From a virus: a stretch of DNA of 64,000 nucleotides. Within the stretch, counting starts at the first letter, position 1, and the number at the start of each line of letters is the position of its first letter. Below are positions 2,296 through 29,500 of the stretch, one piece after another. The DNA lies in the IMG/VR virus record IMGVR_UViG_3300005537_000024, positions 8,562 through 72,561 of that record; one strand, 5' to 3'. The translations under genes and the position numbers were made by a program. Under the pieces are notes generated by a model. That model worked only from the letters and a program-made list of their open reading frames with translations. It was not told the origin of the DNA and did no database searches.

Positions 2296-2693
2296 CGCCC
2301 GTGACCGACTTCCGCGACGCTATCGTGAGGAGGCTTAGGGAGGAGAACGACGAGCTACGCGAGCGGGTCAGGCAGCTCGAGGAGCTATTCTACGGCGGCG
2401 ACGAGTTCACGCCGCCCGAGTGGGGCCTCACGGCGCAGGAGCAGATCCTATTCTGGCTCCTCGTCCGGCGCCGGCACGTGACGCGGGACCAGGCCATGAC
2501 GGCGCTCTACAGCGACCGGGCGGACTGCGACGTCGACCCGAAGGTCGTCGACGTGTTCGTCTGCAAGATGCGCGCGAAGCTCGGGCGCCACGGCATCAGC
2601 ATCGCGACGCACTGGGGGAGAGGCTTCGAGCTCGACGCGGCGACGCGGGCGCGGTTCCGGCGCCCGCTCCCCGCCGCGCAGAGGAGGGCGTGA
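2292..2693 (+). CDS. CtrA/OmpR-type winged-helix protein lacking a receiver domain
   Basis: N-terminal coiled coil, then LT..E..L..LL...LY...DPKVVDVFVCKMRAKL...I.THWGRGF. Confidence 0.75.
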   Translation: MTPVTDFRDAIVRRLREENDELRERVRQLEELFYGGDEFTPPEWGLTAQEQILFWLLVRRRHVTRDQAMTALYSDRADCDVDPKVVDVFVCKMRAKLGRHGISIATHWGRGFELDAATRARFRRPLPAAQRRA

Positions 2694-3334
2694 TGCTCGA
2701 CCGGACCGAGCGCCTGGACGACCCGCTCCTCGCCGGCCTCCCGGACGGGCACTTCGGCGCGATCCTCTGCGACCCGCCGTGGCGGTTCAAGACGTGGAAC
2801 AACGTGACCGCTATCAAGCGGCGCGGGAAGGGGACGAACGTTTCCAGCGCGGTTCACTATAGGACGATGACGCTCGCAGAGATCGCCGCGGTCCCGGTCG
2901 GCAGCGCCGCCGCGCCGGACTGCGCGCTATTCCTATGGATCTCCTGGCCGATGCTGAGGGACGCGCTCAAGGTCATCGAGTGGTGGGGGTTCGAGTACAA
3001 GACCTGCGCGTTCGACTGGGCGAAGGCGCGCGTCGACCAGATCGACATGTTCCGCGACGACGCGGACGCGAGCATGGGGATGGGCTACTGGACGCGGGCC
3101 AACACGGAGCCGTGCCTCCTCGCGACGCGCGGCCGGCCGCGGCGCCTGCACAGGGACGTTCGCATGGGGGTCATCGAGCCGCGGCGCGAGCACTCGCGCA
3201 AGCCGGACTGCGTGCACAAGCGGATCGAGCGGCTCGTCGGCGGACCGTACCTGGAGCTCTGGGCCCGGCAGGACCGGCCCGGGTGGACGGTCCGGGGCGA
3301 CGAGGTCGGGAAGTTCAGGGAGGCGGCAGAGTAA
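2693..3334 (+). CDS. MT-A70 family N6-adenine methyltransferase
   Basis: DPPW catalytic motif, LFLW, WGFEYKT, GMGYWTRANTE, REHSRKP, YLELWAR. Confidence 0.9.
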   Translation: MLDRTERLDDPLLAGLPDGHFGAILCDPPWRFKTWNNVTAIKRRGKGTNVSSAVHYRTMTLAEIAAVPVGSAAAPDCALFLWISWPMLRDALKVIEWWGFEYKTCAFDWAKARVDQIDMFRDDADASMGMGYWTRANTEPCLLATRGRPRRLHRDVRMGVIEPRREHSRKPDCVHKRIERLVGGPYLELWARQDRPGWTVRGDEVGKFREAAE

Positions 3335-5915: not shown

Positions 5916-6271
5916 CGTTCGAGCACCCACACGACGCGGCGATGGCGGGGATGCGCGACGGCATCCTCGGGTCGCCGCCGCGGCACGTGGGGAACTTCTG
6001 CGAGGTCTACGAGCGCGGCTACGTGCTCGGGGGCGGCGAGCGGCGGCGGAGGGAGAAGCTGATGAAGCGCGGGACGAAGGTGAGCTACCGGTCGATCGAC
6101 GGGCAGGTCTACGAGGGCGTCCTGTTCTGCGACGTGCGCGCGGACGGGACCGTGGGGGTCGACGTGGACGTGCCGACGTGCAAGGACAACCCGCTCTCGC
6201 TCACGCGGGTCAACTGGAGCGACGCCCCGAGCGACAAGAGCTACACGGCGTGGCCGAGGGAGGGCGCGTGA
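5912..6271 (+). CDS. hypothetical protein
   Basis: Coupled ORF with GTGA overlaps at both ends. Confidence 0.5.
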   Translation: MTFEHPHDAAMAGMRDGILGSPPRHVGNFCEVYERGYVLGGGERRRREKLMKRGTKVSYRSIDGQVYEGVLFCDVRADGTVGVDVDVPTCKDNPLSLTRVNWSDAPSDKSYTAWPREGA

Positions 6272-6849
6272 CTAAGCCGAGGATCGAGAGCTCCTGGCCG
6301 GCGTCGAAGGTCTCGCTGTGGCCGATCGACAAGATCATCCCGTACGAGAACAACCCGCGCACGCACCCCCCGGCGCAGATAGACCTCCTCGCGCGGTCGA
6401 TGCTGGAGGACGGGGTGACGACGCCGATCCTCGTCGACGAGGAGGGAGTGATCATCGCCGGCCACGGGCGACTGATGGCGTCGATGCAGAACGGGTTCAA
6501 AAAGTACCCCGTCGCCGTCGCGCGCGGGTGGACCGAGGAGCGCAAGCGCGCGGTCCGCGTCAAGGACAACCAGTACGGCCTCATGAGCGGGTGGGACCGC
6601 GAGCTGATCCGCGGCGAGATCGCGTTCCTCTCGGGCGCCGGCGAGGACGTGTCCCTGCTCGGCTTCGGCGACGCGCAGCTCGTCCAGTTCACGACGCTGC
6701 CGGGTCCGCCGTCCGAGTTCCAGGCGTTCGGCGAGGACATCCCCGTGACCCACCGCTGCCCGAAGTGCGGGTACACGGGTTCTGGCGACTGGAGGGCGAA
6801 GCCGCAGGAGCCGGCGGCGCCGAAGAAGGGGAACGGGAAGAACCGGTGA
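6268..6849 (+). CDS. ParB/Srx-like domain protein with C-terminal CPKCG zinc ribbon
   Basis: IIPYENNPRTH, PILVDEEGVIIAGHGRL, DN...SGWD; HRCPKCGY. Confidence 0.85.
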   Translation: MTKPRIESSWPASKVSLWPIDKIIPYENNPRTHPPAQIDLLARSMLEDGVTTPILVDEEGVIIAGHGRLMASMQNGFKKYPVAVARGWTEERKRAVRVKDNQYGLMSGWDRELIRGEIAFLSGAGEDVSLLGFGDAQLVQFTTLPGPPSEFQAFGEDIPVTHRCPKCGYTGSGDWRAKPQEPAAPKKGNGKNR

Positions 6850-8345
6850 AGCCCCCGTACCGCGTCCCTACGATGGCGGAGGTCGCCGCCACCCCTCGAA
6901 ACGGCCTCAAGATCTTATCGACCTTCAGCGGCGCCGGGGGCTCGTGCCTCGGCTTCCGGATGGCCGGGTTCGAGGTCCTCTGGGCGAGCGAGTTCGTCGA
7001 GGCGGCGCGCGAGGTCTACGCGGCGAACGCCGGCCCGGGGACCGTGCTTGACGGAAGGGACATCCGGCTTGTCGACCCGGTCGAAGTGCTTGACGAGCTC
7101 GGCCTCGCGGTTGGCGAGCTCGACGTGCTCGAAGGGTCGCCCCCCTGCGCGAGCTTCTCGACGGCGGGCAAGCGGTCGGCGCATTGGGGGAAGGTCAAGA
7201 AGTACTCCGACACGGAGCAGCGGACCGACGACCTGTTCTTCGAGTACGTCCGCTTCCTGCGGGCGATGCGGCCGCGGGCGTTCGTCGCGGAGAACGTGAG
7301 CGGGCTCGTGAAGGGGGTCGCGAAGGGGTACTTCCTCGAGGTCCTCGCCGCGATGAAGGGCTGCGGCTACCGGGTCGAGGCGCGGCTCCTCGACGCGCAG
7401 TGGCTCGGGGTTCCGCAGCAGCGCCAGCGGATCATCTTCGTCGGCGCGCGCGAGGACCTCGGGGTCGACCCGGCGTTCCCTTCGCCGCTTCCCTACCGCT
7501 ACAGCGTCCGCGACGCGATCCCGCACGCCTCCGCCGTCGGAGGCGTGCGGGCAACCGGCTTCAGCGGGTCCAAGATGGCCCGGTCGTCGAGCCCGTCGCC
7601 GACGATCATGGCCGGCGGCGGGAACGGGATGAACACGTCGCAGTTCGGGATCGAGGTCGAGCCGGAATGCGACATCTCCCGCTTCGCGATCGGCCGATCC
7701 GCCGGCGAACTCAACCCCGGGAAGTACCACCCGAAGCACAAGCAGCTCATCGTCGCCGACCCGTCCGAGCCGAACCCGACGATTTCCCAGCGGCACGGCG
7801 GCGCCGGCGTGGCGTCCGTCGTGATCGAGGCGCGCAGGGTCGCTCACAGCGACACGGTCCCGGAGAACGTCGGCGCGTCGCTAGAGGGCTACGCCGTCGG
7901 CGCAGAGTACGATCGCCTGAACCCGGGGCAGTCGTCGGACCGGTTCTTCAACCTCGTGCGGGCCGACCTAGACCAGCCGTCCCCGACCATAACCGGGCAG
8001 GGAAGCGGGGCCGGCGCGGGAGTCCCCGGTAGCGTGGCCTCGGTCTGCCATCCGACCGAGAAGCGCAAGTTCGCGATCGCCGAGCTGCGGCGGATATGCG
8101 GGTTTCCGGACGACTTCGCGCTCTCGGGGACCTACGCGCAGCAGTGGGAGCGGCTCGGCCGCGCCGTGCCGCCCCCGATGGCCTGCGCGATCGCGTTCAA
8201 GGTCGCGGAGATGCTCGCAAAAGCTCCGCCCAAAACGACTGCGCGCGCTCGACGTTCTCGGGCCGGTTCCACCAAAGGCTTTTCCCCGAAGGGTGGGGGC
8301 AGACGGCCACGTGCGCGCAGTCGCGGGCGAAGCGCGACCACTTGA
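6846..8345 (+). CDS. DNA cytosine-C5 methyltransferase family, candidate carboxymethyltransferase
   Basis: Motifs I FSGAGG, IV GSPPC, VI ENV, VIII QQRQRI, IX RKFAIAELRRICGFP; motif X reads LGRAVPP instead of GNAVP. Confidence 0.92.
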   Translation: MKPPYRVPTMAEVAATPRNGLKILSTFSGAGGSCLGFRMAGFEVLWASEFVEAAREVYAANAGPGTVLDGRDIRLVDPVEVLDELGLAVGELDVLEGSPPCASFSTAGKRSAHWGKVKKYSDTEQRTDDLFFEYVRFLRAMRPRAFVAENVSGLVKGVAKGYFLEVLAAMKGCGYRVEARLLDAQWLGVPQQRQRIIFVGAREDLGVDPAFPSPLPYRYSVRDAIPHASAVGGVRATGFSGSKMARSSSPSPTIMAGGGNGMNTSQFGIEVEPECDISRFAIGRSAGELNPGKYHPKHKQLIVADPSEPNPTISQRHGGAGVASVVIEARRVAHSDTVPENVGASLEGYAVGAEYDRLNPGQSSDRFFNLVRADLDQPSPTITGQGSGAGAGVPGSVASVCHPTEKRKFAIAELRRICGFPDDFALSGTYAQQWERLGRAVPPPMACAIAFKVAEMLAKAPPKTTARARRSRAGSTKGFSPKGGGRRPRARSRGRSATT

Positions 8346-8655
8346 GCGGCTCAAGCTGCCGGAGCCCTAACGCCCCGGCGACGCTGGCCCCGAGCAGGAC
8401 GACGACGTCCCTGGCCGCGACGACCTCCGCCATCGCCGCCGCGGCGGCCTTTGCCTCCGCCATCGGGAAGCGATCGCCGCCGGAGGGCGAGGGGCCGGGC
8501 CAGTATGAGAGCAGGTTCGCCCGGTCGAACCGCGCCAGGAAGCTGGTCCGACCGAGCCCGCAGAGGGCGGCGAGCCGCCGGCCGGAACGACCGGACAGCG
8601 GCTCCCCGAGGACGGAGCGGCGCGAGGGCGCCTGCCCGATGATGAGGGGCTTCAT
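8197..8655 (-). CDS. uracil-DNA glycosylase superfamily protein
   Basis: IIGQAPS, GRSGRRL, N, VVVLLG, HPSG motifs; no Fe-S cysteine set. Confidence 0.75.
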   Translation of the reverse strand: MKPLIIGQAPSRRSVLGEPLSGRSGRRLAALCGLGRTSFLARFDRANLLSYWPGPSPSGGDRFPMAEAKAAAAAMAEVVAARDVVVLLGASVAGALGLRQLEPLKWSRFARDCAHVAVCPHPSGKSLWWNRPENVERAQSFWAELLRASPRP

Positions 8656-8915
8656 GCAGCATCGTCCTCGACTTCGTCCCGGAGGACGATCTGGTCGGAG
8701 GTCCACTCCGTGCCGTCTTCGGCTAGGAAAACCGGCTTGTCGTCCCGAATCACGGTCTCCTGGTCGTCCCAAAAAACCGTTGTTGCTCCCAGCCAGTCGA
8801 AAGTGACGTTGCCGTCCTTGTCTCTCTCGAAGGAGTCGTCGGTGATCTCGGCGCGAGCCGAAACCACTTCCAGGGTGCCCATGATGGGCGACCCGTTGGG
8901 AGCGAACGCCCTCAT
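8652..8915 (-). CDS. hypothetical acidic protein
   Basis: MRAFAPNGSPIMGTLE...; ATGA-coupled at both ends. Confidence 0.6.
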   Translation of the reverse strand: MRAFAPNGSPIMGTLEVVSARAEITDDSFERDKDGNVTFDWLGATTVFWDDQETVIRDDKPVFLAEDGTEWTSDQIVLRDEVEDDAA

Positions 8916-9679
8916 GCTGCTACCCCTTTCTGGGTGACGACGAAGCGTCCCTCGACGCGCTCGACCTTGGCGCCGACCTTCTCGCAGACGCGGCGGAGCG
9001 TGACGGCGCACTTCTTCCAGCCGCCGAGCTTCTTGCACAGCTCCGCCTCGGTCGCGCCGATCGAGCCGGCCGCCACCGCGGCGTCGAGGAGGAGCGCCTG
9101 CTTAGATCCCGCCCGGAGGCCGTCCGGCCGGCTAGAAGCTGCCGCCGGCTGGCCTTCCGCCGGGGCGGCGACCTTTGGCGCCCGCGGCGCCTTCCGCTGC
9201 TTGGCGCCCTTCTCAAGGGCTGCGACGGCGTCCGTCCCGGCCGGGGCAGTCATGAGGGTCATCACGTCGTCGGCCGCGGCCTCGCCGAGCGTCTTCGCCT
9301 TGCGCGCCTTGGCCGGCTTGGGCGCCTTGGCGGCCTTAGGCTTGGCGCCGGAGCTACGGAGCTGCGAAGGGTTCGCGCCGAGCATCTTCGCCGCGGCGCT
9401 CGCCTTGGACTTCGGGTTCTTGATCTTCGCCGCCTTGGCGTCCTTCGCCTTGAGCGCCTTGCGCTCCTCGGGGGTCAGCTTCGGCCGGACGAGGAAGCTC
9501 GGCACGCTAAGGTCGTCTGCCAAGCCTGCGGGCGCCGGGGCGTTGTCGGTTTCGTTAGCGTTCATGGTAGTTTCCTTCGGGTTCGCCGGAGCGGCACGCG
9601 CCGGCTTGGTGGGTCGCTTGGTGATCCAGTTAGCGTTGCGGGCCTCGCGGAGCCTCGCCTCCTTCGGCCCGATCTTCAC
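8912..9679 (-). CDS. Lys/Ala-rich DNA-binding protein with C-terminal winged helix (DUF3489-like)
   Basis: Histone-H1-like KAAK/KPAK tracts; RAGSKQALL...GAT.AEL...GW. Confidence 0.6.
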   Translation of the reverse strand: MKIGPKEARLREARNANWITKRPTKPARAAPANPKETTMNANETDNAPAPAGLADDLSVPSFLVRPKLTPEERKALKAKDAKAAKIKNPKSKASAAAKMLGANPSQLRSSGAKPKAAKAPKPAKARKAKTLGEAAADDVMTLMTAPAGTDAVAALEKGAKQRKAPRAPKVAAPAEGQPAAASSRPDGLRAGSKQALLLDAAVAAGSIGATEAELCKKLGGWKKCAVTLRRVCEKVGAKVERVEGRFVVTQKGVAA

Positions 9680-10116
9680 GACGGCACAAACCGGCCATGC
9701 TTGTCGCGGCGAGGTTCCCAGTTGTTCGCCTTGCGAGTAGCCCAGCCGCGAAGGACGCGATCTCTATCGTTCTGCTCGCGTTGATTCTCGCGCTGCTCTG
9801 ACGGCGTAGCCCAGCGGCAGTTGGTCGGCTCGTAATTGCCGTCGACGTCCGGGTAGCGGTCGATCGTGTGGCGCTGCGACGGCTTCGGTCCCATGTCCGC
9901 GAGGAAGGCGGAGAAGTCTTTGCGCCACCTCTCGCAAACTTTGATGCCTCGACCGCCGTAGTATTTGAACCCTATGTGGCTAGGGCGCTTGCAACGGTCG
10001 ATCATGGCGCACCACGTTCGATATTCCGCCGTTAGTTTTCCCCGCGCCGCGTGGCCGTGCTTGGTATTTCGTGCAACGAGATCAGCCCTTGTGGTTATGC
10101 CAACTCCTTCCAGCAT
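9676..10116 (-). CDS. HNH homing-type endonuclease
   Basis: YRTW.AM..RC, YGGRGIKVCERW, TIDR.PD.DGNYEPTNCRWAT..EQ..N; lower GC; start uncertain. Confidence 0.85.
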   Translation of the reverse strand: MLEGVGITTRADLVARNTKHGHAARGKLTAEYRTWCAMIDRCKRPSHIGFKYYGGRGIKVCERWRKDFSAFLADMGPKPSQRHTIDRYPDVDGNYEPTNCRWATPSEQRENQREQNDRDRVLRGWATRKANNWEPRRDKHGRFVPS

Positions 10117-10429
10117 CGTGAGAGTGAACTCCCCGGGCGACGGCCTTGCGGTCGACGCCGCGGCCGGCAAGCTGCTCGGCCTTGGCGATCTCCGCCCGGG
10201 CGAGCGCGCTCCCCGTCGCCATGATGCGGCGGTAGGCGCAGGCGTCCGTGACGCCGTTGCGCTCGGCCGCGTCGTCCCAGCCCTTGAACGTGATCGCGCC
10301 CTGGGGGCCGACGACCGCCTTTACGAGGCCCTTCTTGAGCTTCGCCTCGAGGGCGGCGACTGCCTTGAGGACCTCGGCGATCCGTTCCTGCACGGTCTGC
10401 TTGGGCTTCCGCATGGTTTCGCAGGCCAT
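10082..10429 (-). CDS. hypothetical protein (AAA-ATPase cassette)
   Basis: 115-aa ORF coupled to the upstream gene; ends HSHD...W..H. Confidence 0.65.
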   Translation of the reverse strand: MACETMRKPKQTVQERIAEVLKAVAALEAKLKKGLVKAVVGPQGAITFKGWDDAAERNGVTDACAYRRIMATGSALARAEIAKAEQLAGRGVDRKAVARGVHSHDAGRSWHNHKG

Positions 10430-11244
10430 TAGCGCGGCTCCCCCTGCTCGGCGGCGCGGAGGTCGGCGTTCGACGCCTTCCAGATCGCGGAGTCCTCGAG
10501 GTCGAGCGCGGCCGCGGCCTTCGGGGCGGCGGCGGCGACCTCGTCCTCGCCGAAGTCTAGGAAGGCGGCGCGCAGCTCCGTGATCTTGCGGATCGCGGAC
10601 TTGTCGACGCCGATCGCCTTGCCGTCCTTCTGGTCCCGGACGATCTGCGACGCCGCCGCGCGCGCGGTCGCGACGGCCATCTCGACCTTGGTCTGCGCGT
10701 CGACCGTGAGCATCTCGCCGATGCCCTTGACGCGGCTCGCGGCCTCGCGGATCGCCGCCGCGTCGCCCCCCTCGACGCCGCCCGCCATCGCGGCCATCAG
10801 CTCCGTGATCTCGGAATTGATCGCGCGGACGGCCTCGACGTCGTCCGGCATGACGCGGCCGGCGAGGACGTAGAGCGTGACGGTGGTCAGGGACGAGCTG
10901 GCGTTGAACTCCTCGACGACGACCTTCGCGGCGGCGACCGCGGCGTCGAGCTTGTCGGAGCTAACCTCCGGGCAGAGGAGACCGAAGGCGGTCTGCGAGC
11001 AGACGGAGCGGATGAGGCCGCACGCGCGGGTCCGTGCCTTCTTGGCCCGGTCGTGTTCGACGGGGTCGTCGATCGTACGCTCCATCTCCCAGCGGGCGAC
11101 GGCGGCGCCCTCGGGCGTAGCGGCGGCGCCGTCGATCGCGGGCGTGCTTTCGAGGTCGCGGCGAGCGTAGTGGACGTTCCCGCGGACGCTCGTCTTGAGG
11201 GCGACGAGGAACCCGGGGCGGAGGGTCGTGCTGCTGATGGTCAT
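10429..11244 (-). CDS. hypothetical helical protein (AAA-ATPase cassette)
   Basis: GGAGA RBS; 271-aa ORF with typical codon usage. Confidence 0.7.
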   Translation of the reverse strand: MTISSTTLRPGFLVALKTSVRGNVHYARRDLESTPAIDGAAATPEGAAVARWEMERTIDDPVEHDRAKKARTRACGLIRSVCSQTAFGLLCPEVSSDKLDAAVAAAKVVVEEFNASSSLTTVTLYVLAGRVMPDDVEAVRAINSEITELMAAMAGGVEGGDAAAIREAASRVKGIGEMLTVDAQTKVEMAVATARAAASQIVRDQKDGKAIGVDKSAIRKITELRAAFLDFGEDEVAAAAPKAAAALDLEDSAIWKASNADLRAAEQGEPR

Positions 11245-11254
11245 TTGGTGGTCT

Positions 11255-11340
11255 CCTATCGGCGGGGTGATTCCCCGGCGCGGCCCTACTAGGAAGCTGC
11301 GCGCCGGGGGATGTACAGGGCGTCGTGGAAAAATATCCCC
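11255..11340 (-). promoter_or_regulatory. repeated promoter-like element, copy 1
   Basis: Shares CCTATCGGCG, CCCCGGCGC, AAGCTGCGCGC, GATGTACAG and GAAAAAT.TCCCC with 13093-13187. Confidence 0.6.
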
Positions 11341-12914
11341 TAGATGTCGAGCGAGCGGAGGCGGGGGGCGGAGGTCTTCTCCTCGGCGACGCCGGCCGGC
11401 CGAGCCTTGCCGACCGCCCATTCCCGCAGCGCCTTGATCTTCGGCGCGGCGGTCTTCGAGAGCGGGACGACGCCCTTCGCGGCGGCGAGCAGGTCGTCCG
11501 TCGCGATCGCGCGCTCGCCGTCGTTGAAGGCGGCGAACATCGCCTCGGGGACGACGGCCGCGATCTCGGCGCCGGTGAACCCCTCGGTCGCGTCGGCGAC
11601 CGCGCCGCAGTCGACCGAGTTCGGGTCGCGCTCGAAGCCGCGAAGCGTGGCGAACGCGATCTGCGCGCGCTCCTGGTTCGTCGGGAGGTCGACGAAGAAC
11701 AGCTCGTCAAACCGGCCCTTGCGGAGGAGCTCCGGCGGGAGGGCGGAGACGTCGTTCGCGGTCGCGATCACGAACGCCTCGGACGAGCGATCCTGCATCC
11801 ACGTGAGGACGGCGCCGAGCTGGTCGGCGGAGGTCCCGCCGTCGGAGGAGCCGGAGGTCGCGCCCTGCATCGCCTTCTCGATCTCGTCGAGCCAGACTAC
11901 GCACCTGCCCACGGCCTCGATGACCTTGAACGCCTTGCGGATGTTCTGCTCGGACTCGCCGACGAACTTCGACTTGAGGGCGCCGAGGTCCATGCGGATC
12001 AGCGGGACGCCGAAGAACGTCGCGGTCGCCTTCGCGGTGTACGTTTTGCCCGTGCCCGGGATGCCGACGATCAAGACGCCCTTCGGGGTCGGGATCTTCG
12101 CGGCCCGCGCCTTCGCGGAGAACGCAGCGACGCGCGACTTGAGCCACGCCTTCAGGTTCTCGAGGCCGCCGACCGCGTCGAGGCCGCCGGGCAGGGGGTC
12201 GCACCACTCGAGGATTCGCTCGCGGGCGATCACGCGCTGCTTCTCCTTCGAGACGACGGCGGGGTCGACGCGGCGGAGCTTGACGAGCGAGTGGTTGAAA
12301 CAAGCGACGGCCTCCTCCTCGGTCAGGCCGACCGCGGCGTCGATCGCCGCCTCGCGCTTGCCGTTGAGCGGCTCGACCTTGTCGCCGCCGGACCGGACGG
12401 CCTCGTCGAGCACCTCGCCGATCTCGGCGCGGTCGGGGAGCGGCCACTCGATGACGGTCGCGTGGTTGGCAAGCTCCGGGGGGACCTCGCCGCCCGGGGA
12501 AAGGACGACGACTGCCTGCGTGCTCGCGAGGTCGGCGGCCGGGAGGGAGCGGGCCAGGTTGCGGAGCTGGCGGAGTGTCGTCGAGCCACCTATCCCGGAG
12601 AGCCACGCCGGGAGGTCGCGCATGATCCAGAGGCCGCGGAACGGGTCGGAAGTGCGCCGGGAAGCGTTGCGGACCTCGTCGAGCGCGGTCCCGGCGTCGC
12701 GGGAGCCCTCAGGCTCGGGGAGCGGGTCGCCCTGATCGTTGGCAAGCCCGACCGCGCAGTCCCACGTCGTGACGCGGTACTTGAGCGCCGCGGCGGCGGC
12801 GGCGAGGTATCGCTCGACCCGAGCCTCCTCGCGGCTCACGATCCAGATTAGGGGCTTGCGGGCGCGGAGGAGGGCGGCGACGTCGGCGGCGACTTCTTGC
12901 GAGCGGGTTTTCAT
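11340..12914 (-). CDS. AAA+ ATPase, Ycf46-like (degenerate N-terminal AAA plus active AAA)
   Basis: Walker A GIPGTGKT, Walker B VVWLDEIEK, ATAN, PPELLRKGRFDE, GFTGAEI. Confidence 0.9.
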   Translation of the reverse strand: MKTRSQEVAADVAALLRARKPLIWIVSREEARVERYLAAAAAALKYRVTTWDCAVGLANDQGDPLPEPEGSRDAGTALDEVRNASRRTSDPFRGLWIMRDLPAWLSGIGGSTTLRQLRNLARSLPAADLASTQAVVVLSPGGEVPPELANHATVIEWPLPDRAEIGEVLDEAVRSGGDKVEPLNGKREAAIDAAVGLTEEEAVACFNHSLVKLRRVDPAVVSKEKQRVIARERILEWCDPLPGGLDAVGGLENLKAWLKSRVAAFSAKARAAKIPTPKGVLIVGIPGTGKTYTAKATATFFGVPLIRMDLGALKSKFVGESEQNIRKAFKVIEAVGRCVVWLDEIEKAMQGATSGSSDGGTSADQLGAVLTWMQDRSSEAFVIATANDVSALPPELLRKGRFDELFFVDLPTNQERAQIAFATLRGFERDPNSVDCGAVADATEGFTGAEIAAVVPEAMFAAFNDGERAIATDDLLAAAKGVVPLSKTAAPKIKALREWAVGKARPAGVAEEKTSAPRLRSLDI

Positions 12915-13081
12915 TGGGCGAGCTCCGTGGTGAAACCGGGAAGGGTACGGGCCGAGCGGTAGAGCGCGACCGAGGCGGCGAGCTCCGCGGTCGCGCACCT
13001 GATCGGCTGGCCCCGCGCGTCGCACGCGATCTTGAGCAGGCCGGCCGCGTCGCGGTAGCGGGCGAAGTAGAATTGTTCCAT
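12911..13081 (-). CDS. small hypothetical protein (56 aa)
   Basis: MEQFYFARYRDAAGLLKIACD...; stop overlaps the ATPase ATG. Confidence 0.4.
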   Translation of the reverse strand: MEQFYFARYRDAAGLLKIACDARGQPIRCATAELAASVALYRSARTLPGFTTELAQ

Positions 13082-13092
13082 CGAGGTATTTT

Positions 13093-13187
13093 CCTATCGG
13101 CGAGGGACGGGAATCTCCCCCGGCGCAATTCCTATTGAAAGCTGCGCGCTGGCCGATGTACAGTCCCCCATGAAGAAAAATGTCCCC
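13093..13187 (-). promoter_or_regulatory. repeated promoter-like element, copy 2
   Basis: Degenerate copy of 11255-11340, upstream of the inverted block. Confidence 0.6.
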
Positions 13188-13859
13188 GTCCCCAGCAAGT
13201 TCAAGATCCCCGACAATTGGACGTTCCGGAGCGAAAGCGTCGCGCGGAACTTCGACCAGCACGTCCGCGAATCGCTCCCGTGGTACGACCTCGCGACGGG
13301 CATCATCGTCCACGTCGCCCGGTCGTACCTCCCGCGGCGCGGCGTCGTCGTCGACGTCGGGGCCTCGACCGGCAACATCGGCCGCGCGCTCGCCCCGATC
13401 CTGAAGGTGCGCGAGGCGCAGCTCGTCGCGATCGACTCGGCGGCGGAGATGGCCGCGGTCTACGACGCTCCGGGCCAGTTCGTCGTCATGGACGCCGTCG
13501 AGTTCAACTTCGCGAACCGTCGTCCCGACCTGATCGTCTGTTTCCTCGCGCTCCAGTTCGTCCCGGTCGCCGAGCGGGGTGGCCTAGTTCAACGCATGAT
13601 CGGAGCGATTCGTCCGGGGGGCGCCGTCGTCGTTTTCGATAAGATGGTGCCGCGGCCCGGCTACGTCGGGACGGTCGCCTACCGGATGACGCTCGCTGCG
13701 AAGTCGGAAGCCGGGGCGTCGCCGGCGGAGATCGTCGCGAAGGAGCTCTCGATCGCCGGCGTCCAGCGCCCGCTCGCAGAGGAGGAGCTCGCCGGCTTCG
13801 TCGAGGTCTTCCGGTTCGGCGACTTCGCCGGCTTCGTCCGCGAGCGCCCGGCGCTGTAG
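13170..13859 (+). CDS. CmoA-like SAM-dependent enzyme (carboxy-SAM synthase homolog)
   Basis: WTF....VA..F..HVRESLPWY, VVDVGASTG, IDS...M, LALQFV...R, GG....DK resemble CmoA. Confidence 0.8.
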   Translation: MKKNVPVPSKFKIPDNWTFRSESVARNFDQHVRESLPWYDLATGIIVHVARSYLPRRGVVVDVGASTGNIGRALAPILKVREAQLVAIDSAAEMAAVYDAPGQFVVMDAVEFNFANRRPDLIVCFLALQFVPVAERGGLVQRMIGAIRPGGAVVVFDKMVPRPGYVGTVAYRMTLAAKSEAGASPAEIVAKELSIAGVQRPLAEEELAGFVEVFRFGDFAGFVRERPAL

Positions 13860-15430: not shown

Positions 15431-15690
15431 GGCTCATGCGCAACCAGCTTACCGGCAAGGGCAAGTACACCGTCTTCGACAATCGCAAGCGTTTGGTCGT
15501 GGCCAACGACGGCCCGGGCGAGGAGAATGAGCACTTTGTTTTGATGTTAAAGGACAAGTACGCGCGGGCGGCGCTGCTCGCCTACGCGCGGGCGGCGACG
15601 GAGGACGGGGACCACGAGTACGCCGCCGACGTGACGGAGCTCGCCGACCGGGCCGGCGAATGTCACCCCAAGTGCAAGAGGCCGGACTGA
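15427..15690 (+). CDS. hypothetical phage protein
   Basis: AAGGAG RBS; FVLMLKDKYARAALLAYA motif. Confidence 0.65.
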   Translation: MRLMRNQLTGKGKYTVFDNRKRLVVANDGPGEENEHFVLMLKDKYARAALLAYARAATEDGDHEYAADVTELADRAGECHPKCKRPD

Positions 15691-16523
15691 TGGGCGAGAA
15701 CACGAAGATCGAGTGGGCCACGCACACCTTTAACCCCTGGTTTGGTTGCCAGAAGGTCTCGCCGGGCTGCGACAACTGCTACGCCGAGGCGCTGATGGAC
15801 AAGCGGCTCGGTCGCGTCCAGTGGGGGCCGCACGGCGAGCGCGTGCGCACGAGTACGGCGAACTGGAACCTACCATTGAAGTGGGCGATGGCCGCCCGCG
15901 GCGCGCGCGAGCGCCCGCGAGTGTTCTGCGCCTCGCTCGCCGACGTGTTCGACAACCAGGTCTCGGACGAGTGGCGCAGCGACCTATTCGCGCTGATCGA
16001 GAACACGCCGGAGCTTGACTGGCTCCTGCTAACGAAGCGGCCGGAGAACGTCCGCGCGATGCTGCCGGCGTGGTGGCAACCGCCGCTAAGCGCGCCTATG
16101 TGGCTCGGCGTGACGGCCGAGGACCAGCACAACTTCGACCGGCGCTGGGCGATCCTCCGCATGGTCTGGGCGCGCGTCCGGTTCGTGAGCTACGAGCCCG
16201 CGCTCGGCCCGCTGCTGATCGACCACCTCGAGGACGACGCATACCCGGACTGGATAATCTGCGGCGGCGAGAGCGGGCCGAACGCGCGGCCGATGAACCC
16301 CGCCTGGGCCCGGGACCTGCGCGACCAATGCGCCGCCAACGGCGTCCCGTTCCTGTTCAAGCAGTGGGGCGAGTGGGCGCCGTTTTACTATCGCGACGAC
16401 GGTGAGCCTCGAAGGAGTCACGAGTTCGGTGACGTGCGCGTCCATCGGATAGGCAAGCTGAACGCCGGGCGTCTCCTCGACGGCGCCGAGCACAACGCGT
16501 TCCCAACCTGGGAGGAAAGGTGA
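15690..16523 (+). CDS. DUF5131 / phage Gp37-Gp68 family (three-Cys motif) protein
   Basis: TKIEWATHTFNPW.GC.KVSPGCDNCYAE, LLLTKRP, S.EP.LG, WII.GGESG, FLFKQWG. Confidence 0.92.
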   Translation: MGENTKIEWATHTFNPWFGCQKVSPGCDNCYAEALMDKRLGRVQWGPHGERVRTSTANWNLPLKWAMAARGARERPRVFCASLADVFDNQVSDEWRSDLFALIENTPELDWLLLTKRPENVRAMLPAWWQPPLSAPMWLGVTAEDQHNFDRRWAILRMVWARVRFVSYEPALGPLLIDHLEDDAYPDWIICGGESGPNARPMNPAWARDLRDQCAANGVPFLFKQWGEWAPFYYRDDGEPRRSHEFGDVRVHRIGKLNAGRLLDGAEHNAFPTWEER

Positions 16524-22232: not shown

Positions 22233-22495
22233 TGTCGGCGGAGACGATGCTGCGCGAGGCGCTCGACCCGAAGAACTTCCCCCGGTGGGCGCAGGCGTGC
22301 CCGAAGTCGTTCGAGGAGATGCAGAAGTCGATCGCCAGGGCCGCGGTGATGATGGCGAAGCTCCCGCTCGCCGACAGTACGCGGGCGACCCTGACAATGA
22401 CGCTCGGCGACGTGGCGGCGTCGTGCTGGGCCGCGGGCCAGCGGTCGGTCAAGGAGGGCAACCTCGACGTCGACGCCTTGCAGGGGAAGGGCTGA
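22232..22495 (+). CDS. hypothetical protein
   Basis: Coupled ORF. Confidence 0.5.
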   Translation: MSAETMLREALDPKNFPRWAQACPKSFEEMQKSIARAAVMMAKLPLADSTRATLTMTLGDVAASCWAAGQRSVKEGNLDVDALQGKG

Positions 22496-24702
22496 TGGCG
22501 AACGGGCACGGGGGCGCCCGCCCTGGCGCGGGGCGGAAGAAGGGATCGTCGCCGGCGAACGACAACAGGGGACAGCCGGAGAAACCCGCGTCCCCCCCTC
22601 AGCGCCTGGCCTCGTTCGAGGCGCTCGCGGCGCTCGTCGAGGCGAGCAGGGAGCGGGCCAAGACGCGCGAGCGGACGCGCGACTGGTGCCCGTTCAAGAT
22701 CGCCGAGCACCCGCCGATGGCGATGCCCCGCAAAGAGCTCACGATGGCGATGGACGACGCCCTTATGGGGAACAACAACTGGGCCGCCGATTCGTGGATG
22801 GCCGGCGGCATGCTCTCGAGCGTGGCGTCGGAGGGCCTCCTGTTCCTCGGCTATCCTTTCCTCTCCGAGCTCGCGCAGCGCGCCGAGTACCGCATCATCT
22901 CGGAGACGATCGCGACGGAGCTGACCCGCAAGTGGGTGCGGTTCAAGGGGAAGGGGGACGCCGACAAGACCGACAAGATCAGCGAGCTGAACGACTTCCT
23001 CGACGACCTGAAGCTCCGCGACCGGTTCTGCGACATCGCCCTCCAAGACGGGGAGTTCGGCCGCTCGCACCTGTTCCTCGACCCCGGCGACGTGAGCGAC
23101 GACGAGCTCAAGACGCCGATCGGGACGGGGCGCGACCGGACGACGAAGGGCAAGCTCGGGACCGCGAAGGGCTGGCTCAAGTCGCTTAGGGTAATCGAGC
23201 CGCTATGGGTCTACCCGACGACCTACAACGCGCAGAACCCCCTCCGCGGCGACTGGTACAACCCGCAGGTCTGGTACGTGATGGGGCGCGAGATCCACCG
23301 GTCGCGCATCCCGACGTTCATAGGGCGCCCGGTCCCGGACCTCCTCAAGCCCGCCTACTCGTTCGGCGGGCTCTCGCTCTCGCAGATGGCGAAGCCATAC
23401 GTCGACATCTGGCTCCAGACGCGGGAGAGCGTCGCGGAGATCGTCCGCTCGTTCTCGGTGATGGTCCTCGAGACGGACCTCGCCACGCGGCTGATGCCGG
23501 GGGGCGGCGGCGCGGCCGACGTGCTCGCGCGCGTCGCGGCGTTCAACGCGCTGCGCGACAACCAGGGCACGTTCGTCATCAACAAGAACACGGAGGGGTT
23601 CCAGAACGTCTCGGCGCCGCTCTCGGGCCTGCACGAGCTCCAGGCGCAGTCGCAGGAACACGTCGCCTCCGTCGCCCGCATCCCGCTCGTAAAGTATACG
23701 GGCATCGAGCCGTCGGGGCTCAACGCCTCGTCGGAGGGGTCGATCCGGACGTTCTACGACTCGATCGCGGCTTTCCAGCCGAAGCTGTTCGACCCGAACC
23801 TCGACTTCGTGATCGACGTGGCCATGATCACGCTCTGGGGCGAGCGCGACCCCGACATCGTCAAGGAGTACGTCCCGCTCCACTCGCTGACCGAGAAGGA
23901 GGAGGCCGAGCTCCGCAAGACGAACGCCGAGACCGCGCAGATCCATATCGACTCGGGCGTCCTATGGCAGGAGGAGGAGCGGGCGCGCGTCGCGAGCGAC
24001 CCGCAGGGCCTCTACCCCGGCCTCGACCCCGAGGACGTGCCGGACCTCAAGGAGGAGGAGGAAGCGGGCCTCGTCCCGCCGGGCGCCGGCAAGGGGCTAG
24101 AAGCGGTCCTTGAGGAACCAGGGGAGCGCGGCGGCGAGGACGCGGCCATCCTCCCTTTTGCCGAGGACGCTGAGTGGCGGGAAGGGGACCACCCGCGCGA
24201 CGCGAGCGGCAAGTTCGGGGCCGGGGGCGGGCACGCTGCGGCAACCGCGTACAAGGAGCACGCCGCCGTCAATGAATGGCTCCGCGGCGAGCGAGACCCG
24301 TCGACCGGCTCGGCGAAGGAGAACAAGAAGATCATCGCTGAAATGGACGAGCTGATCGCGTCGAGCAAGACCGACAAGGCTCAGACGCTCTACCGCGGCT
24401 TCGGCGACGCCGACGTGGTGAAAAACGCTAGCGGCAAGGGCTACGTCCGCGACCCGGCATTCCTCTCGACCTCGACCGATGAGGGCATCGCGCGCGAGTT
24501 CGCCGGGTCGGGGTACGTAGCGGCGATCAAGGTCCCGGCAGGGACGAACGCCTATTCGTTCGGCGACGATGACCCGCAGAAAGAGGTAGTGCTACCGCGC
24601 CGGACGCGCCTAAAGATCTCTGGCGCCGACCACCAGAAGAAGATCCTTCACCTAACGCTGGTCGAGGCCCCCGCGGCGGCCGACGATGAAACGGAAGAAT
24701 GA
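22495..24702 (+). CDS. portal protein (DUF1073-type) fused to a C-terminal ADP-ribosyltransferase
   Basis: FLGYP.LSELAQR.EYR, IEP.W.YP..YN, LLKPAYSFGG.SLSQ, IPLVK..GI.PSGLNASSEG; C-terminal LYRG...FLSTS...QKE. Confidence 0.9.
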   Translation: MANGHGGARPGAGRKKGSSPANDNRGQPEKPASPPQRLASFEALAALVEASRERAKTRERTRDWCPFKIAEHPPMAMPRKELTMAMDDALMGNNNWAADSWMAGGMLSSVASEGLLFLGYPFLSELAQRAEYRIISETIATELTRKWVRFKGKGDADKTDKISELNDFLDDLKLRDRFCDIALQDGEFGRSHLFLDPGDVSDDELKTPIGTGRDRTTKGKLGTAKGWLKSLRVIEPLWVYPTTYNAQNPLRGDWYNPQVWYVMGREIHRSRIPTFIGRPVPDLLKPAYSFGGLSLSQMAKPYVDIWLQTRESVAEIVRSFSVMVLETDLATRLMPGGGGAADVLARVAAFNALRDNQGTFVINKNTEGFQNVSAPLSGLHELQAQSQEHVASVARIPLVKYTGIEPSGLNASSEGSIRTFYDSIAAFQPKLFDPNLDFVIDVAMITLWGERDPDIVKEYVPLHSLTEKEEAELRKTNAETAQIHIDSGVLWQEEERARVASDPQGLYPGLDPEDVPDLKEEEEAGLVPPGAGKGLEAVLEEPGERGGEDAAILPFAEDAEWREGDHPRDASGKFGAGGGHAAATAYKEHAAVNEWLRGERDPSTGSAKENKKIIAEMDELIASSKTDKAQTLYRGFGDADVVKNASGKGYVRDPAFLSTSTDEGIAREFAGSGYVAAIKVPAGTNAYSFGDDDPQKEVVLPRRTRLKISGADHQKKILHLTLVEAPAAADDETEE

Positions 24703-25483
24703 GCGAACGCTGCGGCCCGTCCGCGCGAACGCGGGGATCGCCGCGGCCTACAGGCGCCGGATCGTCGCCCTCCTCGACGAGATGGCAGCGTCGTACGAGC
24801 ACTGGATAGCGGCGCAGTACCGGGCGAAGCCCCCGGCGATGGCGCAGGACGCGAGCGCGGCGAAGGAGCTAGAGCGCGAGCTGCGCAAGCTCGGGAAGCG
24901 CTGGCAGCGTCGCATCGACGAGGCGGCGCCGAAGCTCGCGGCGTGGTTCGCCCGGGCGGCGGAACTCCGGTCGGAGACAGCGCTGCGCAAGATCCTCCGG
25001 GACGCCGGGATCAGCGTCAAGTTCACGGTCACGAGGGAGATGCGCGACGTACTCGACGCGACGGTCGCGCAGAACGTGTCGCTCATCCGCTCGATCCCGG
25101 AGCAATACCACACGGAAGTCGAGGGCCTGGTGATGCGCTCGGTCACGGCGGGGCGCGACCTCGAACAGCTGACCAAGGACCTCCGGAGGCGATACGATAT
25201 TACGCAGCGCCGAGCAGTGCTGATCGCCAGGACACAAAACGGAATGGCAACCGCTGCGATGACGCGGGCTCGACACACCGCAATAGGGATCGAGGAAGCT
25301 CTATGGCTACACTCTCATGCGGGGCGCGAGCCGAGGCCGACTCACCTGGCCAACGACCGGAAAAAGTACAAAATTGCGGAAGGCTGGTACGATCCTGACC
25401 CCAAGGTCCGCCGTCACATTTGGCCTGGGGAATTGATCAACTGCCGTTGCGTTCCAAAGCCGATCGTGAAGGGGTTCTCGTGA
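24686..25483 (+). CDS. MuF / gp7-like head morphogenesis protein
   Basis: NV.LIRSIP, RA.LIAR.Q, W.HS...PRP.H, PGELINCRC. Confidence 0.92.
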   Translation: MKRKNERTLRPVRANAGIAAAYRRRIVALLDEMAASYEHWIAAQYRAKPPAMAQDASAAKELERELRKLGKRWQRRIDEAAPKLAAWFARAAELRSETALRKILRDAGISVKFTVTREMRDVLDATVAQNVSLIRSIPEQYHTEVEGLVMRSVTAGRDLEQLTKDLRRRYDITQRRAVLIARTQNGMATAAMTRARHTAIGIEEALWLHSHAGREPRPTHLANDRKKYKIAEGWYDPDPKVRRHIWPGELINCRCVPKPIVKGFS

Positions 25484-26535: not shown

Positions 26536-29500
26536 ATGACTCGTGGAAAACGTTGGCTGGCGCTCCTCGGCCTCCTCGGCCTCGCGGCGGTCTCGCTCGC
26601 GCAGGTGCCGAACGGCGGCCCGATGGTTCCGTCCGTCCCGTTCCCGCTCGCGGCGTCGAACGAGCTTGCGGACTGCGCGCCGTCGACCAGCTGCAGGAGC
26701 AACATCGGCCTCGATCCCTCGGTCTCGACCACGGACGGGTGGGGGGCGGCCGGCAACGCGATCTCGGCGACGTTCGTCGCCTGCTACACGAACAACGGCT
26801 CGTTCTGCGGCGGCCAGGCGTTCAACATCGTCAGCTTCCCGACGACCCAGAACGGCTCGCAGTCGACCACCGTGACGGGAACGTTGGGCGGGAGCGTGAT
26901 CACGCTTCAGTCTGGATGGTGCCGGTCGGAGATGGCCGGGTCGCCGATCTACATCCCCGGGGCCGGCCTCGGCGGGGCGCCGCTGTTCACAAAGATCGTC
27001 TCGTGCATCAGCACGCAGCCGTCGGTCGCGGCGTCGATCGAGACGCCTATGTCCGTCGTCCCGAGCGGGACGGTGACGGTCTCTTACGGGGCGCAGGCGC
27101 TCAACGGCGGAACGGGCTGGCAGCAGACGGACGTCGGGAAGGGGATCTACCTCGGCAACTCGGCGGGCGGCCAGCTCGGCGGCACGTTCACGATCACCGC
27201 GGTCACTTCTGGCCTGAATATAACGCTCAGCTCAAACGTTTCGTCGATCAACAACAGCACGGCCTCGAACTTCGTGTGGGGGACCGACGACAGCACCGCG
27301 GTTAGCAACGCCTGCGCCGCAGCCGCGGCGATCCCGTCGCGGCAGCTCCAGGTCCCGCTGAAGCACTTCGTCCCATCGCTCTCGGCGATCTGCTACAACG
27401 TCCGCCTGCGCGGCTCCGGTGCGCTCATGAGCACGGAGTTCGGCCTTCCGGTATCGAGCGGCGCGGGCGCCGGCATCGTGCAGGAGTTCGTCGTCCCGTA
27501 CGACGCGCCGCCGGCGCAGGGGCCGCGCCGCGAGGTGATCGCCGCGCGCGACCTCAACCAGTGCAGGCTCGCCGGCCCCAACCCGATCATCGTCCAGTCG
27601 GGCGACAGCCTCGAGCAGCTCGTGCCGAACGAGCTGTCCGGCCTCGGGACCTACCCGGGATCGTTCAAGGCGGCGTTCCTGCGGCAGAACCAGCGGACGC
27701 TCTGGCCGACCTTCCGCAACGCCGCGGCCGGCGGGGCGCAGTACACCAACTTCGACGGCAACCCGAACCAGGCGACCGGCGACGTCCTCACGTCGACGTC
27801 GACGCCGTGGCTCACGCAGATCGCGGCCGTCAACCCGTGCCTCGTGATCAACGGCATGGGGAACAACGACGGCGCTGGGCTCTCGATCCCGGCCCTCGTC
27901 GACAGCTACGTGAAGATGACGACGCCGGGCGCGGTCTTCGCGACGCCGCCGGACTTCATCTACGTAACGCACCACCCCTACAGCCGCATCAACAATAGCA
28001 ACATCGACGCGTGGGAAGGTGACGAGTACGCCTCCGGCTACATCTGCTCGTTCGCCCACGTCATGGGGCGTCCGTGCATAGACGGCGCGCGCGAGGGCGA
28101 GAAGCACCTATTCGGGATCGACCCCGGCGCGATGCGGATGACCCGCCGGTACGACGTCCCCTACAACACCAACAACATGGCCCTGCCGTACTCGCTCTCC
28201 GGGTCCGTCTACGGCCACTCGGCGCAGTTCTTCAAGAGCGGGCAGAACGGCGCGACGTTCTGGGCGAACTTCACTGGCAACGGCGGCGTGACGGACCCGC
28301 GCGGCAACTTCATCGCGTTCCGGGTCGGCAAGAACTCCGACAACGTCGTGTGGCTGTTCTACAACGGGACGAACATCGGCTACGAGTGCGACCCGTCGGC
28401 GGGCCTTCCCGGCCTCGGCTGCGACGGCCCGAACGGCCAGCCCCCCGTCGTCCCTTCGCTCCTGAGCAACGTCACGGTCGCCAACACGGGCGGCGGGGGC
28501 GTCGCCCAGGTCTCGACCTCGACCGCGGTCTTGCAGCCTTGCACGGTCGGCGGGACGGTCGCGATCCCGGGCGCAGGCGCGGTGCTGACGCCGCCCGGTT
28601 ATACCAGCTACACGGCGCCGCTCGTCACGACGGTCACGGCCTGCAATTCGACCTCCCTCATGACCCTCGCGGTCGCCGCGACGACGACCTACGCGGCGCA
28701 GTCCGGCTTCGTGATGTTCGGGAACCCGGTCACCTACTCCAACGTGACCGACGCCTCGAACTGCACGAACGAGCCCTTCGGCTTCGAGGTCAACTTCGAC
28801 ACGCTCAGGGTCTGGTTCTGCTCGACGAACCAGATCGTCTACGAAGGCCCGGTGATGCGGCCGCGGGGGCTCTACCAGCCGTCGATCTTCACCGGCGGCA
28901 ACCGGCCCTCGTTTACGGTCGGGGTCGACATTAACGGCGGCACGACGTTCCAGACGCTTCGCCCCAACCCGAGCCAGATCACGTTCAACGACGCCGAGGT
29001 TAGCGGCCCCGCGAGCAACGGCCCTCTGTCGAACCAGACCTACTCCGGCCCCGACGGCGGCGACGGCAACAACCACAACACGATGCGGTTCGGGACGCGG
29101 GTCATCGCGCCCCTGTTCGACGCGCAGGACCTTTCGATCGCGCCCGCGTATGTCGGGCCGGCGAACAAGCCGGCGCTCGGCCTCGGAATCCCGCAGGCGC
29201 GGACGATGGCGCTGTTCGGGGATAGCATTTTCCAGGGCAACGACACGATCAACCTCAGCAACTCGTCGTGCTCGTCTGGCAACTGCGCCGCCACCCTCGA
29301 CGGCGGCTACGGGACGTTCGCTAGCGCGTATTCCGGCTACAGGGTGCTGCGGGTCCCGAACACGGGCAACTGCTCGCTAAACGGGTCGACCTCAGCGATC
29401 ATGGTCAACTACGTGAGCTGCGTCCTGGCGCTCAGGCCCGACGTGGTCATGATGGAGATCGGCGGGAACGACGCGGCCGGGAGCACGGCCTGCGCCACGG

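Follow-up and report, generated by a model that had tools for sequence, protein, structure and literature searches.

The DNA analyzed here is a window of 64,000 nucleotides (bases 8562-72561) of the IMG/VR record IMGVR_UViG_3300005537_000024, which comprises 72,561 bp, and it contains three genes that quite probably constitute a CmoA-CmoX DNA modification module of a complete tailed phage of 72.5 kb. As judged from their sequences, they encode a ParB-like protein, a homolog of DNA cytosine C5-methyltransferases (C5-MTases) with an arginine in motif X and a diverged CmoA-like protein, and the predicted product is 5-carboxymethylcytosine (5cxmC). The module is a further example of a published system and not a new discovery. 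A sequence-only reading of the window had proposed a 5cxmC pathway directed against restriction and had suspected that related phage enzymes were already reported. The pathway is supported by homology, the transferase having a carboxymethyltransferase as best solved relative with the motif-X arginines of both in register, and by gene context, and the suspicion proved right.

The CmoA-CmoX-CmoY system was described for Synechococcus phage S-B43 (Yang et al., Nat Commun, December 2025; PMC12783734). It was reported that SpCmoA makes carboxy-S-adenosylmethionine (Cx-SAM) from S-adenosylmethionine (SAM) and prephenate with a kcat of 2.33 per second, that SpCmoX (structure 8YF3) uses Cx-SAM to form 5cxmC, that SpCmoY couples glycine to this base and that the modified DNA resists HhaI (PMC12783734). 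In SpCmoX, Arg350 stands in place of Asn304 of M.HhaI and contacts the carboxymethyl group (PMC12783734). The same study gives 5,615 candidate CmoX enzymes, recognized by SPPC and Arg350, in viral data sets, with 4,257 CmoA, 2,251 ligase and 1,660 ParB-domain genes as neighbors, and ParB-domain genes are described as often accompanying the CmoX/CmoA pair (PMC12783734). Among bacterial enzymes, the CG enzyme M.MedI was reported to have carboxymethylation activity (PMC12015181). Literature searches returned no report of natural phage cytosine carboxymethylation, of a phage CmoX or of carbamoylmethyl-dC formed with Cx-SAM besides PMC12783734.

A predicted CmoX-type transferase and its coupled ParB-like neighbor

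The C5-MTase with a motif-X arginine, and the ParB-like/zinc-ribbon gene coupled upstream of it, lie where the sequence-only reading had placed them (Table 1). The translation of the transferase contains all motifs of the C5-MTase fold that were sought, i.e., FSGAGGS (motif I), SPPC (IV), ENV (VI), QQRQR (VIII) and GRAVPP (X). Its best sequence match in the Protein Data Bank (PDB) is SpCmoX (8YF3, E 4.4e-56, 37% identity), followed by M.HaeIII at E 5.7e-23. Both in the pairwise alignment of the PDB search and in MAFFT, residues S98-C101 fall opposite S95-C98 of SpCmoX and Arg439 (ERLGRAVPP) falls opposite Arg350 (ERVGRMVPP). The four cofactor contacts of SpCmoX, F25, E47, F48 and D69, are all conserved in the MAFFT alignment, and all 12 aligned relatives have SPPC and the Gly-Arg pair. 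For an AlphaFold2 (AF2) model with a mean predicted local distance difference test (pLDDT) score of 59.8, in which the motif-X helix reaches 91-95, Foldseek returns 8YF3 at rank 1 (E 9.8e-23 versus 2.7e-16 for the next structure). Since equivalents of SPPC and Arg350 are both present, the transferase is by its sequence a CmoX in the published operational sense. Its target-recognition insert, approximately residues 228-407, is unalignable and its recognition domain exceeds the SpCmoX domain by about 150 residues, so that the GC specificity of SpCmoX is not transferable to the window enzyme.

The ParB-like open reading frame (ORF) opens with GTG and its C-terminus, with CPKC, resembles a zinc ribbon. 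The match to the ParB_N domain (PF02195-type) is weak, with E 1.1e-4 and 22.6 bits under a Pfam cut-off of 26.3, and the match to PHROG 620, "ParB-like partition protein", is strong (E 6.8e-42). Two GTGA overlaps flank this ORF: at 6268-6271 its start shares nucleotides with the stop of the preceding gene, and at 6846-6849 its stop does so with the GTG start of the transferase. In Moraxella phage Mcat8 and Streptomyces phage TurkishDelight, the gene immediately before the transferase is a homolog. PMC12783734 describes ParB-domain genes as frequent neighbors of CmoX, and the coupled gene takes that place here. On sequence and gene order, the ParB-like protein is classed as a conserved, translationally coupled accessory of the CmoX module.

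The CmoA-like protein and the QRP branch

The gene of the CmoA-like protein lies, as the sequence-only reading had it, on the strand of the transferase beyond an inverted block of genes. The best NCBIfam family of the protein is TIGR00740 (CmoA, E 3e-14), its best match among solved structures is E. coli CmoA (4GEK, E 5.5e-10) and it matches PHROG 4752, "tRNA methyltransferase", with E 2.3e-49. An AF2 model with pLDDT 86.1 and a predicted template modeling (TM) score of 0.83 retrieves CmoA structures at Foldseek ranks 1-6 (4GEK, 4IWN and 1IM8; TM scores 0.74-0.79), in keeping with the kinship to CmoA that had been proposed. From E. coli CmoA, the residues Y39, D62, G64, S66, D89, F137, K165, K185 and K198 are kept. 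E164 is replaced by Asp, which is the only alternative to Glu reported for residue 164 in the 2013 paper on CmoA (PMC3663124), and N132, which is likewise not kept in other phage homologs, is replaced by Phe.

Arg199 in the QKR motif of E. coli CmoA forms a salt bridge with the cofactor carboxylate (PMC3663124). The sequence-only reading had cautioned that this arginine aligns by eye to AKELS in the window protein, and phmmer and MAFFT agree in placing Glu192 at the Arg199 column. The assayed SpCmoA likewise has Glu at this column, and the Glu is therefore not a defect by itself. In an alignment of 26 CmoA homologs, with columns numbered as in E. coli CmoA, an arginine stands at column 199 in E. 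coli, Alcaligenes phage Afa-NA1 and an Erwinia jumbo phage, at column 203 in SpCmoA, a Staphylococcus SPbeta-like phage, TurkishDelight, Gordonia phage Evaa and MT835562, and at column 207 in the window protein, Mcat8 and every IMG/VR relative; Evaa has it at 203 and 207 both. The column-207 arginine belongs to an invariant Q-R-P eight columns downstream of the Arg199 column; all 24 viral and all 80 genome loci have the pattern xQRP. In the model of the window protein, the loop that holds Q-R-P follows a helix ending at residue 195. Arg200 is marked in Table 1 as a candidate for a relocated carboxylate-binding residue. The QRP group as a whole has Asp for Glu164, Phe for Asn132 and no H-D in the HDFK motif, and by these sequence features it is a coherent, diverged branch of the CmoA family.

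Upstream of the gene, a sigma-70-like promoter match of 9/12 ends 6 nt before the ATG; it was the one site found between 8000 and 14200, where 0.1 were expected. If promoter match and start codon are both right, the transcript would be leaderless or nearly so.

Pairing of the transferase and the CmoA-like gene across relatives

A search of 50,697 phage records returned 60 that match the CmoA-like protein. Among the best 40 of 580 records matching the transferase, 38 also match the CmoA-like protein, and the two exceptions are records of Pseudomonas phage PaBG. As many of the 38 are duplicates or belong to one jumbo-phage group, they amount to about three independent lineages. Because 38 of the 40 best transferase records lie among only 60 CmoA-like records, the pairing is not due to chance.

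The co-occurrence of motif-X-Arg enzymes with CmoA homologs, which the sequence-only reading had named as a check, is also seen in two sets of loci that encode relatives of the CmoA-like protein. Of the 24 viral loci in the IMG/VR set, 14 have a transferase ORF that combines SPPC with Gly-Arg, and seven have a ligase of the TurkishDelight or SpCmoY type. The second set was drawn from bacterial and archaeal species genomes, in which 80 loci were kept of 103 relatives. These have a CmoX-like gene only (43/80, two of them with a ligase), a ParB-ParB-methyltransferase fusion only (32/80), both (4/80, the C5 enzyme then having GYPC or SCPC and not SPPC) or, on a 1-kb contig, neither (1/80). Thus, 79 of 80 genome loci have a C5-MTase homolog (47) or a ParB-ParB-methyltransferase (32) within 6 kb. 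SPPC and Gly-Arg stand in one ORF in 37 of the 80, two more show the SPPC pattern without the strict Arg pattern, and no ORF with SPPC and Gly-Asn was found in the 104 viral and genome loci. Amide ligases lie beside QRP-type genes in L009, L011, L012, L022 and L024. From the tight pairing with the transferase and from the adjoining amide ligases, which need a carboxylate, we infer that the QRP branch makes Cx-SAM.

In L026 (8469-9986), as also in L025, L028, L029 and Gordonia phage Evaa (genes 1-5, L034), the QRP-type CmoA-like gene adjoins a ParB-ParB-methyltransferase fusion. The L026 fusion has 506 aa with two ParB-like domains and a class-I methyltransferase domain (Methyltransf_23, E 3.6e-6) and is not a C5 enzyme. 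Through such fusions, another type of carboxymethyl transfer, as yet undescribed, may draw on the QRP branch; PMC12783734 states that no non-C5 carboxymethyltransferase candidates turned up.

Two further observations concern the distribution of the module. Six loci on six contigs of one metagenome-assembled genome (MAG) of Verrucomicrobiota (L054, L086, L090, L104, L106 and L109) carry modules of ParB, CmoX and QRP-type CmoA, and three other MAGs likewise have several ParB-CmoX-CmoA loci each, which suggests a multi-copy prophage or mobile element in these genomes. In the Staphylococcus SPbeta-like phage (L008, 4989-6688), a cmoA that is well conserved, with 155 bits on TIGR00740, directly precedes a C5-MTase that has neither SPPC (GSPCQSF instead) nor the motif-X arginine and is possibly a different lineage using Cx-SAM.

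Absence of an amide ligase and the predicted end product

In the published system, an asparagine-synthase-like, ATP-dependent ligase of the CmoY type is encoded together with CmoX and CmoA. No such gene was found in this phage: PF00733 (Asn_synthase) gave no match at E <= 1 in the whole genome of 72,561 bp, the control being found in 14 of 14 genomes, tblastn of SpCmoY and of TurkishDelight gp124 against the window gave no match, and no ligase or amidotransferase is among the 40 ORF products of the window that were scanned with Pfam. The closest viral relative, L009 (a 74-kb contig with a CmoA-like protein of 71% identity), has an AsnB-like ligase exactly between the transferase and a uracil-DNA glycosylase (UDG)-like gene. 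In the window and in L016 these two genes overlap and leave no room for a ligase. L037, a MAG labelled Rhizobiales with a CmoA-like protein of 69% identity, and L010 are also without a ligase and L011 has one, so that two of six related genomes (the window, L009, L010, L011, L016 and L037) encode it. Because no CmoY-type ligase is encoded, free 5cxmC is the predicted end product. As the ligase comes and goes among close relatives, this phage group is a natural place to test for un-amidated 5cxmC in virions, and if free 5cxmC is packaged, it would be a base not yet seen in a native virion.

Proposed pathway and alternative explanations

In the proposed pathway, the CmoA-like enzyme would turn SAM and prephenate into Cx-SAM. 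The C5 transferase would flip out the target cytosine, Cys101 would attack C6, and the resulting C5 carbanion would take the carboxymethyl group of Cx-SAM, its carboxylate being held by Arg439, to give 5cxmC. The third step of the published system, amide ligation by a CmoY-type enzyme, would be absent and free 5cxmC would be the final base. The mark would shield the phage DNA from restriction enzymes of the host, and such a shield is its most likely role.

Several observations weigh against this pathway. The CmoA-like protein reaches 53.3 bits and not the TIGR00740 cut-off of 193.3 bits, it has neither Arg199 nor the arginine that SpCmoA carries four columns on, and it lost the H-D of the HDFK motif that other CmoA homologs keep. 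The Foldseek lead of CmoA over CysG/BelI-type methyltransferases is narrow (5e-15 versus 9e-13), and no QRP-type member is among the assayed CmoA enzymes described in PMC12783734. The transferase model is good in the catalytic core only, with pLDDT below 50 at residues 228-407. No CmoX-type gene was seen in 10 of the 24 viral loci, of which some are cut short (L021 and L031 among them) and some have a ParB-methyltransferase fusion, as in the group L025-L031, where it lies upstream in the locus tested (L026). Finally, 5cxmC could be modified further by an unrecognized enzyme. As to the bit score, the TIGR00740 cut-off is a poor guide, because the assayed SpCmoA scores only 115.6 bits (E. coli CmoA: 455); for annotation this means that the NCBIfam cut-off misses even an assayed phage CmoA. 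As SpCmoA falls short of the cut-off and lacks Arg199 as well, the window protein is filed, on its sequence, as a diverged member of the CmoA family whose function is inferred.

The weak points of the CmoA-like protein would be accommodated if the transferase is a true carboxymethyltransferase that draws its cofactor from the CmoA of the host, the phage protein being an ordinary methyltransferase or the maker of another SAM derivative. SpCmoX was indeed reported to be active in E. coli with host CmoA alone (PMC12783734), and the lack of both arginines and of H-D, the score far under the family cut-off and the fold match to CmoA only slightly above that to CysG/BelI would all fit. This reading is nevertheless quite unlikely, since an unrelated methyltransferase would hardly show such a pairing: of the 80 genome loci, 79 have the QRP-type gene within 6 kb of a C5-MTase homolog or a ParB-methyltransferase fusion (37 with SPPC and Arg), in Mcat8, L010 and L011 the CmoA-like gene directly adjoins the transferase, and the protein keeps the SAM-contact residues. 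It is very improbable that the transferase is an ordinary 5-methylcytosine (5mC) enzyme that tolerates the motif-X arginine, the phage DNA then carrying 5mC. Although all classical C5-MTase motifs are present, wild-type SpCmoX was reported to take only Cx-SAM and not SAM (PMC12783734), no 5mC enzyme comes nearly as close to the transferase as SpCmoX does (by the PDB matches above) and SPPC with Arg, but in none of the 104 loci SPPC with Asn, accompanies CmoA-like genes.

The end product is the other point at issue. 5cxmC may be an intermediate only, which an unrecognized enzyme of phage or host converts further so that the virion base is hypermodified. This is unlikely but has an appreciable chance: S-B43 virion DNA was reported to hold the glycine amide only, with free 5cxmC undetected (PMC12783734), a ligase occupies, in the close relatives L009 and L011, the junction at which the window has none, and several nearby genes have no known function. 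Against it stand the lack of an asparagine-synthase-like gene in a complete genome and of matches to both ligase types in the window, the Pfam scans and the equally ligase-free L016, L037 and L010. The fullest form of the preferred reading can be put forward only tentatively, at somewhat less than an even chance: the phage would package free 5cxmC as the final base and would obtain the cofactor from a QRP branch in which the arginine has moved twice (199 in E. coli, 203 in SpCmoA, 207 in the window), H-D is lost and non-C5 ParB-ParB-methyltransferase fusions serve as further partners. If the QRP-type enzyme is active, the "defining" Arg199 of the family would be dispensable and movable, which is relevant to the choice of Cx-SAM synthases as tools.

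Comparison with known systems

The window phage resembles S-B43 in its C5-MTase homolog with SPPC and the arginine that binds Cx-SAM, its phage CmoA homolog, its ParB-domain neighbor, the Glu at the Arg199 column and the predicted chemistry and anti-restriction role. It differs from S-B43 in lacking the CmoY ligase, in the much longer, unalignable recognition insert of the transferase, in the CmoA-like protein, which is only about 24% identical to SpCmoA and is of the QRP type without the column-203 arginine, and in the inverted block of 4.7 kb that splits the pathway genes. E. coli CmoA (4GEK, 4IWN), which acts with CmoB in the synthesis of uridine 5-oxyacetic acid (cmo5U) in tRNA, matches the CmoA-like protein best in both fold and sequence and shares the SAM-contact residues Y39, D62, G64, S66, D89 and F137. 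In the window protein, however, Arg199, N132 and E164 are replaced by Glu, Phe and Asp, the HD of HDFK is lost and the predicted acceptor is DNA, not tRNA; no CmoB partner was found among the Pfam-scanned products. In engineered M.MpeI N374K, the motif-X Asn is likewise replaced by a basic residue, which enables a C5-MTase to use Cx-SAM (cited in PMC12783734). The window enzyme is natural, in contrast, has Arg and not Lys and belongs to another lineage than M.MpeI, whose target is CG.

TurkishDelight and Mcat8, known from annotated genomes, are the closest relatives among cultured phages and agree with the window in the ParB-zinc-ribbon gene and in the order of the genes. In tblastn, the transferase is 49% identical in TurkishDelight and 41% in Mcat8, and the CmoA-like protein 29% and 42%, respectively. 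Mcat8 has the ParB-zinc-ribbon, transferase and CmoA-like genes contiguous beside the terminase, is ligase-free and encodes a QRP-type CmoA like that of the window, whereas TurkishDelight has the order ParB, transferase, glutamine-amidotransferase/asparagine-synthase-like gene and CmoA, the latter being of the column-203-Arg type.

The inverted block between the pathway genes

About 4.7 kb with seven ORFs on the minus strand separate the transferase from the CmoA-like gene (Table 1).

Table 1. Coordinates of the module genes, of individual codons and sites and of the intervening minus-strand genes in the window.
Feature	Position	Strand	Basis
ParB-like N-terminal domain protein with C-terminal zinc-ribbon-like CxxC end	6268-6849	+	Pfam, PHROG, translation
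Predicted CmoX-type DNA cytosine C5-carboxymethyltransferase, 499 aa	6846-8345	+	PF00145 E 6.8e-52; 8YF3
Codons of S98-P99-P100-C101 (motif IV SPPC, catalytic Cys)	7137-7148	+	Aligned to SpCmoX S95-C98
CGC codon of Arg439 (motif X ERLGRAVPP), predicted partner of the Cx-SAM carboxylate	8160-8162	+	Aligned to SpCmoX Arg350
Minus-strand block of seven ORFs between transferase and CmoA-like gene	8197-12914	-	ORFs, Pfam, PHROG
UDG-superfamily gene	8197-8655	-	PF03167 E 8.7e-7; PHROG 12275
128-aa ORF and 255-aa ORF, no family match	within 8197-12914	-	ORF list, scans
HNH endonuclease	9676-10170	-	PHROG 374 E 1.6e-37
PHROG 11784 gene	within 8197-12914	-	PHROG
PHROG 11021 gene, 272 aa	10429-11247	-	PHROG
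AAA+ ATPase	11340-12914	-	Pfam/PHROG
Sigma-70-like promoter match, 9/12	13135-13164	+	Consensus match; 6 nt before CmoA-like ATG
CmoA-like protein of the QRP subfamily, predicted Cx-SAM synthase, 229 aa	13170-13859	+	TIGR00740, 4GEK, PHROG 4752, Foldseek
Codon of Glu192, at the column of E. coli CmoA Arg199	13743-13745	+	phmmer, MAFFT
Codon of Arg200 in the invariant Q-R-P, candidate relocated carboxylate-binding Arg	13767-13769	+	Alignment

The UDG-like gene converges on the 3' end of the transferase with an overlap of about 150 nt, and its position is kept in five related loci (L009, L010, L011, L016 and L037), with a ligase in between or not. L037 has the order transferase, UDG-like gene, 255-aa ORF, PHROG 11784 gene, PHROG 11021 gene, AAA+ gene and CmoA-like gene. 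The HNH gene is missing from this otherwise syntenic locus and is therefore read as probably a mobile insertion. What L009 and L016 have of the block is limited to the UDG-like gene and some of the genes after it, and in L010 and L011 the CmoA-like gene lies between ParB and the transferase. That the block, with its UDG-like, AAA+ and other genes, is part of the pathway was considered and set aside, as only its UDG-like and 255-aa genes return in L009 and L016, its fuller form only in the near relative L037 and none of its genes in the more distant CmoX-CmoA loci; by this comparison it is probably local phage context. An ESM Atlas look-up of the 272-aa protein returned viral hypothetical clusters only, all with scores <0.9.

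Genome, host and further genes

The record has direct terminal repeats and a CheckV completeness of 100%, and the G+C content of the window is 65-71% from end to end. By its Pfam matches, which include a portal protein, a Mu-F-like protein, a sheath-like DUF3383 protein and tail and baseplate proteins, the genome is assigned to a tailed phage. The nearest genome loci are labelled Rhizobiales and Azospirillum and the G+C content fits, so that the host is probably an alphaproteobacterium. A complete, high-GC, probably alphaproteobacterial phage genome is thereby added to the CmoA-CmoX family.

Among the other products of the window are a YqaJ and ERF recombination pair and proteins with DUF1376, a cold-shock domain, a DnaJ domain and DUF5131. 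An MT-A70 adenine methyltransferase gene (2420-3334, plus strand; PF05063, E 2.3e-19) lies about 3.5 kb upstream of the CmoX module, and through it the phage probably methylates adenine as well. The portal protein (22285-24702, plus strand; 805 aa) combines Phage_portal_3 (E 2.8e-71) with a C-terminal ADP-ribosyltransferase domain (PF03496, E 1.5e-8), which may be delivered with the virion, and the Mu-F-like gene (24686-25483, plus strand) follows right after it. Further plus-strand genes encode a 1311-aa product with a GDSL lipase/acylhydrolase domain (26536-30471), an 870-aa NUDIX-DUF2213 fusion (33047-35659) and a 266-aa product with a match to an outer-membrane beta-barrel domain (61716-62516). 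A distance of 1.8 kb separates the CmoA-like gene from the DUF5131 (phage Gp37/Gp68) gene downstream (15660-16523, plus strand; E 1.1e-83).

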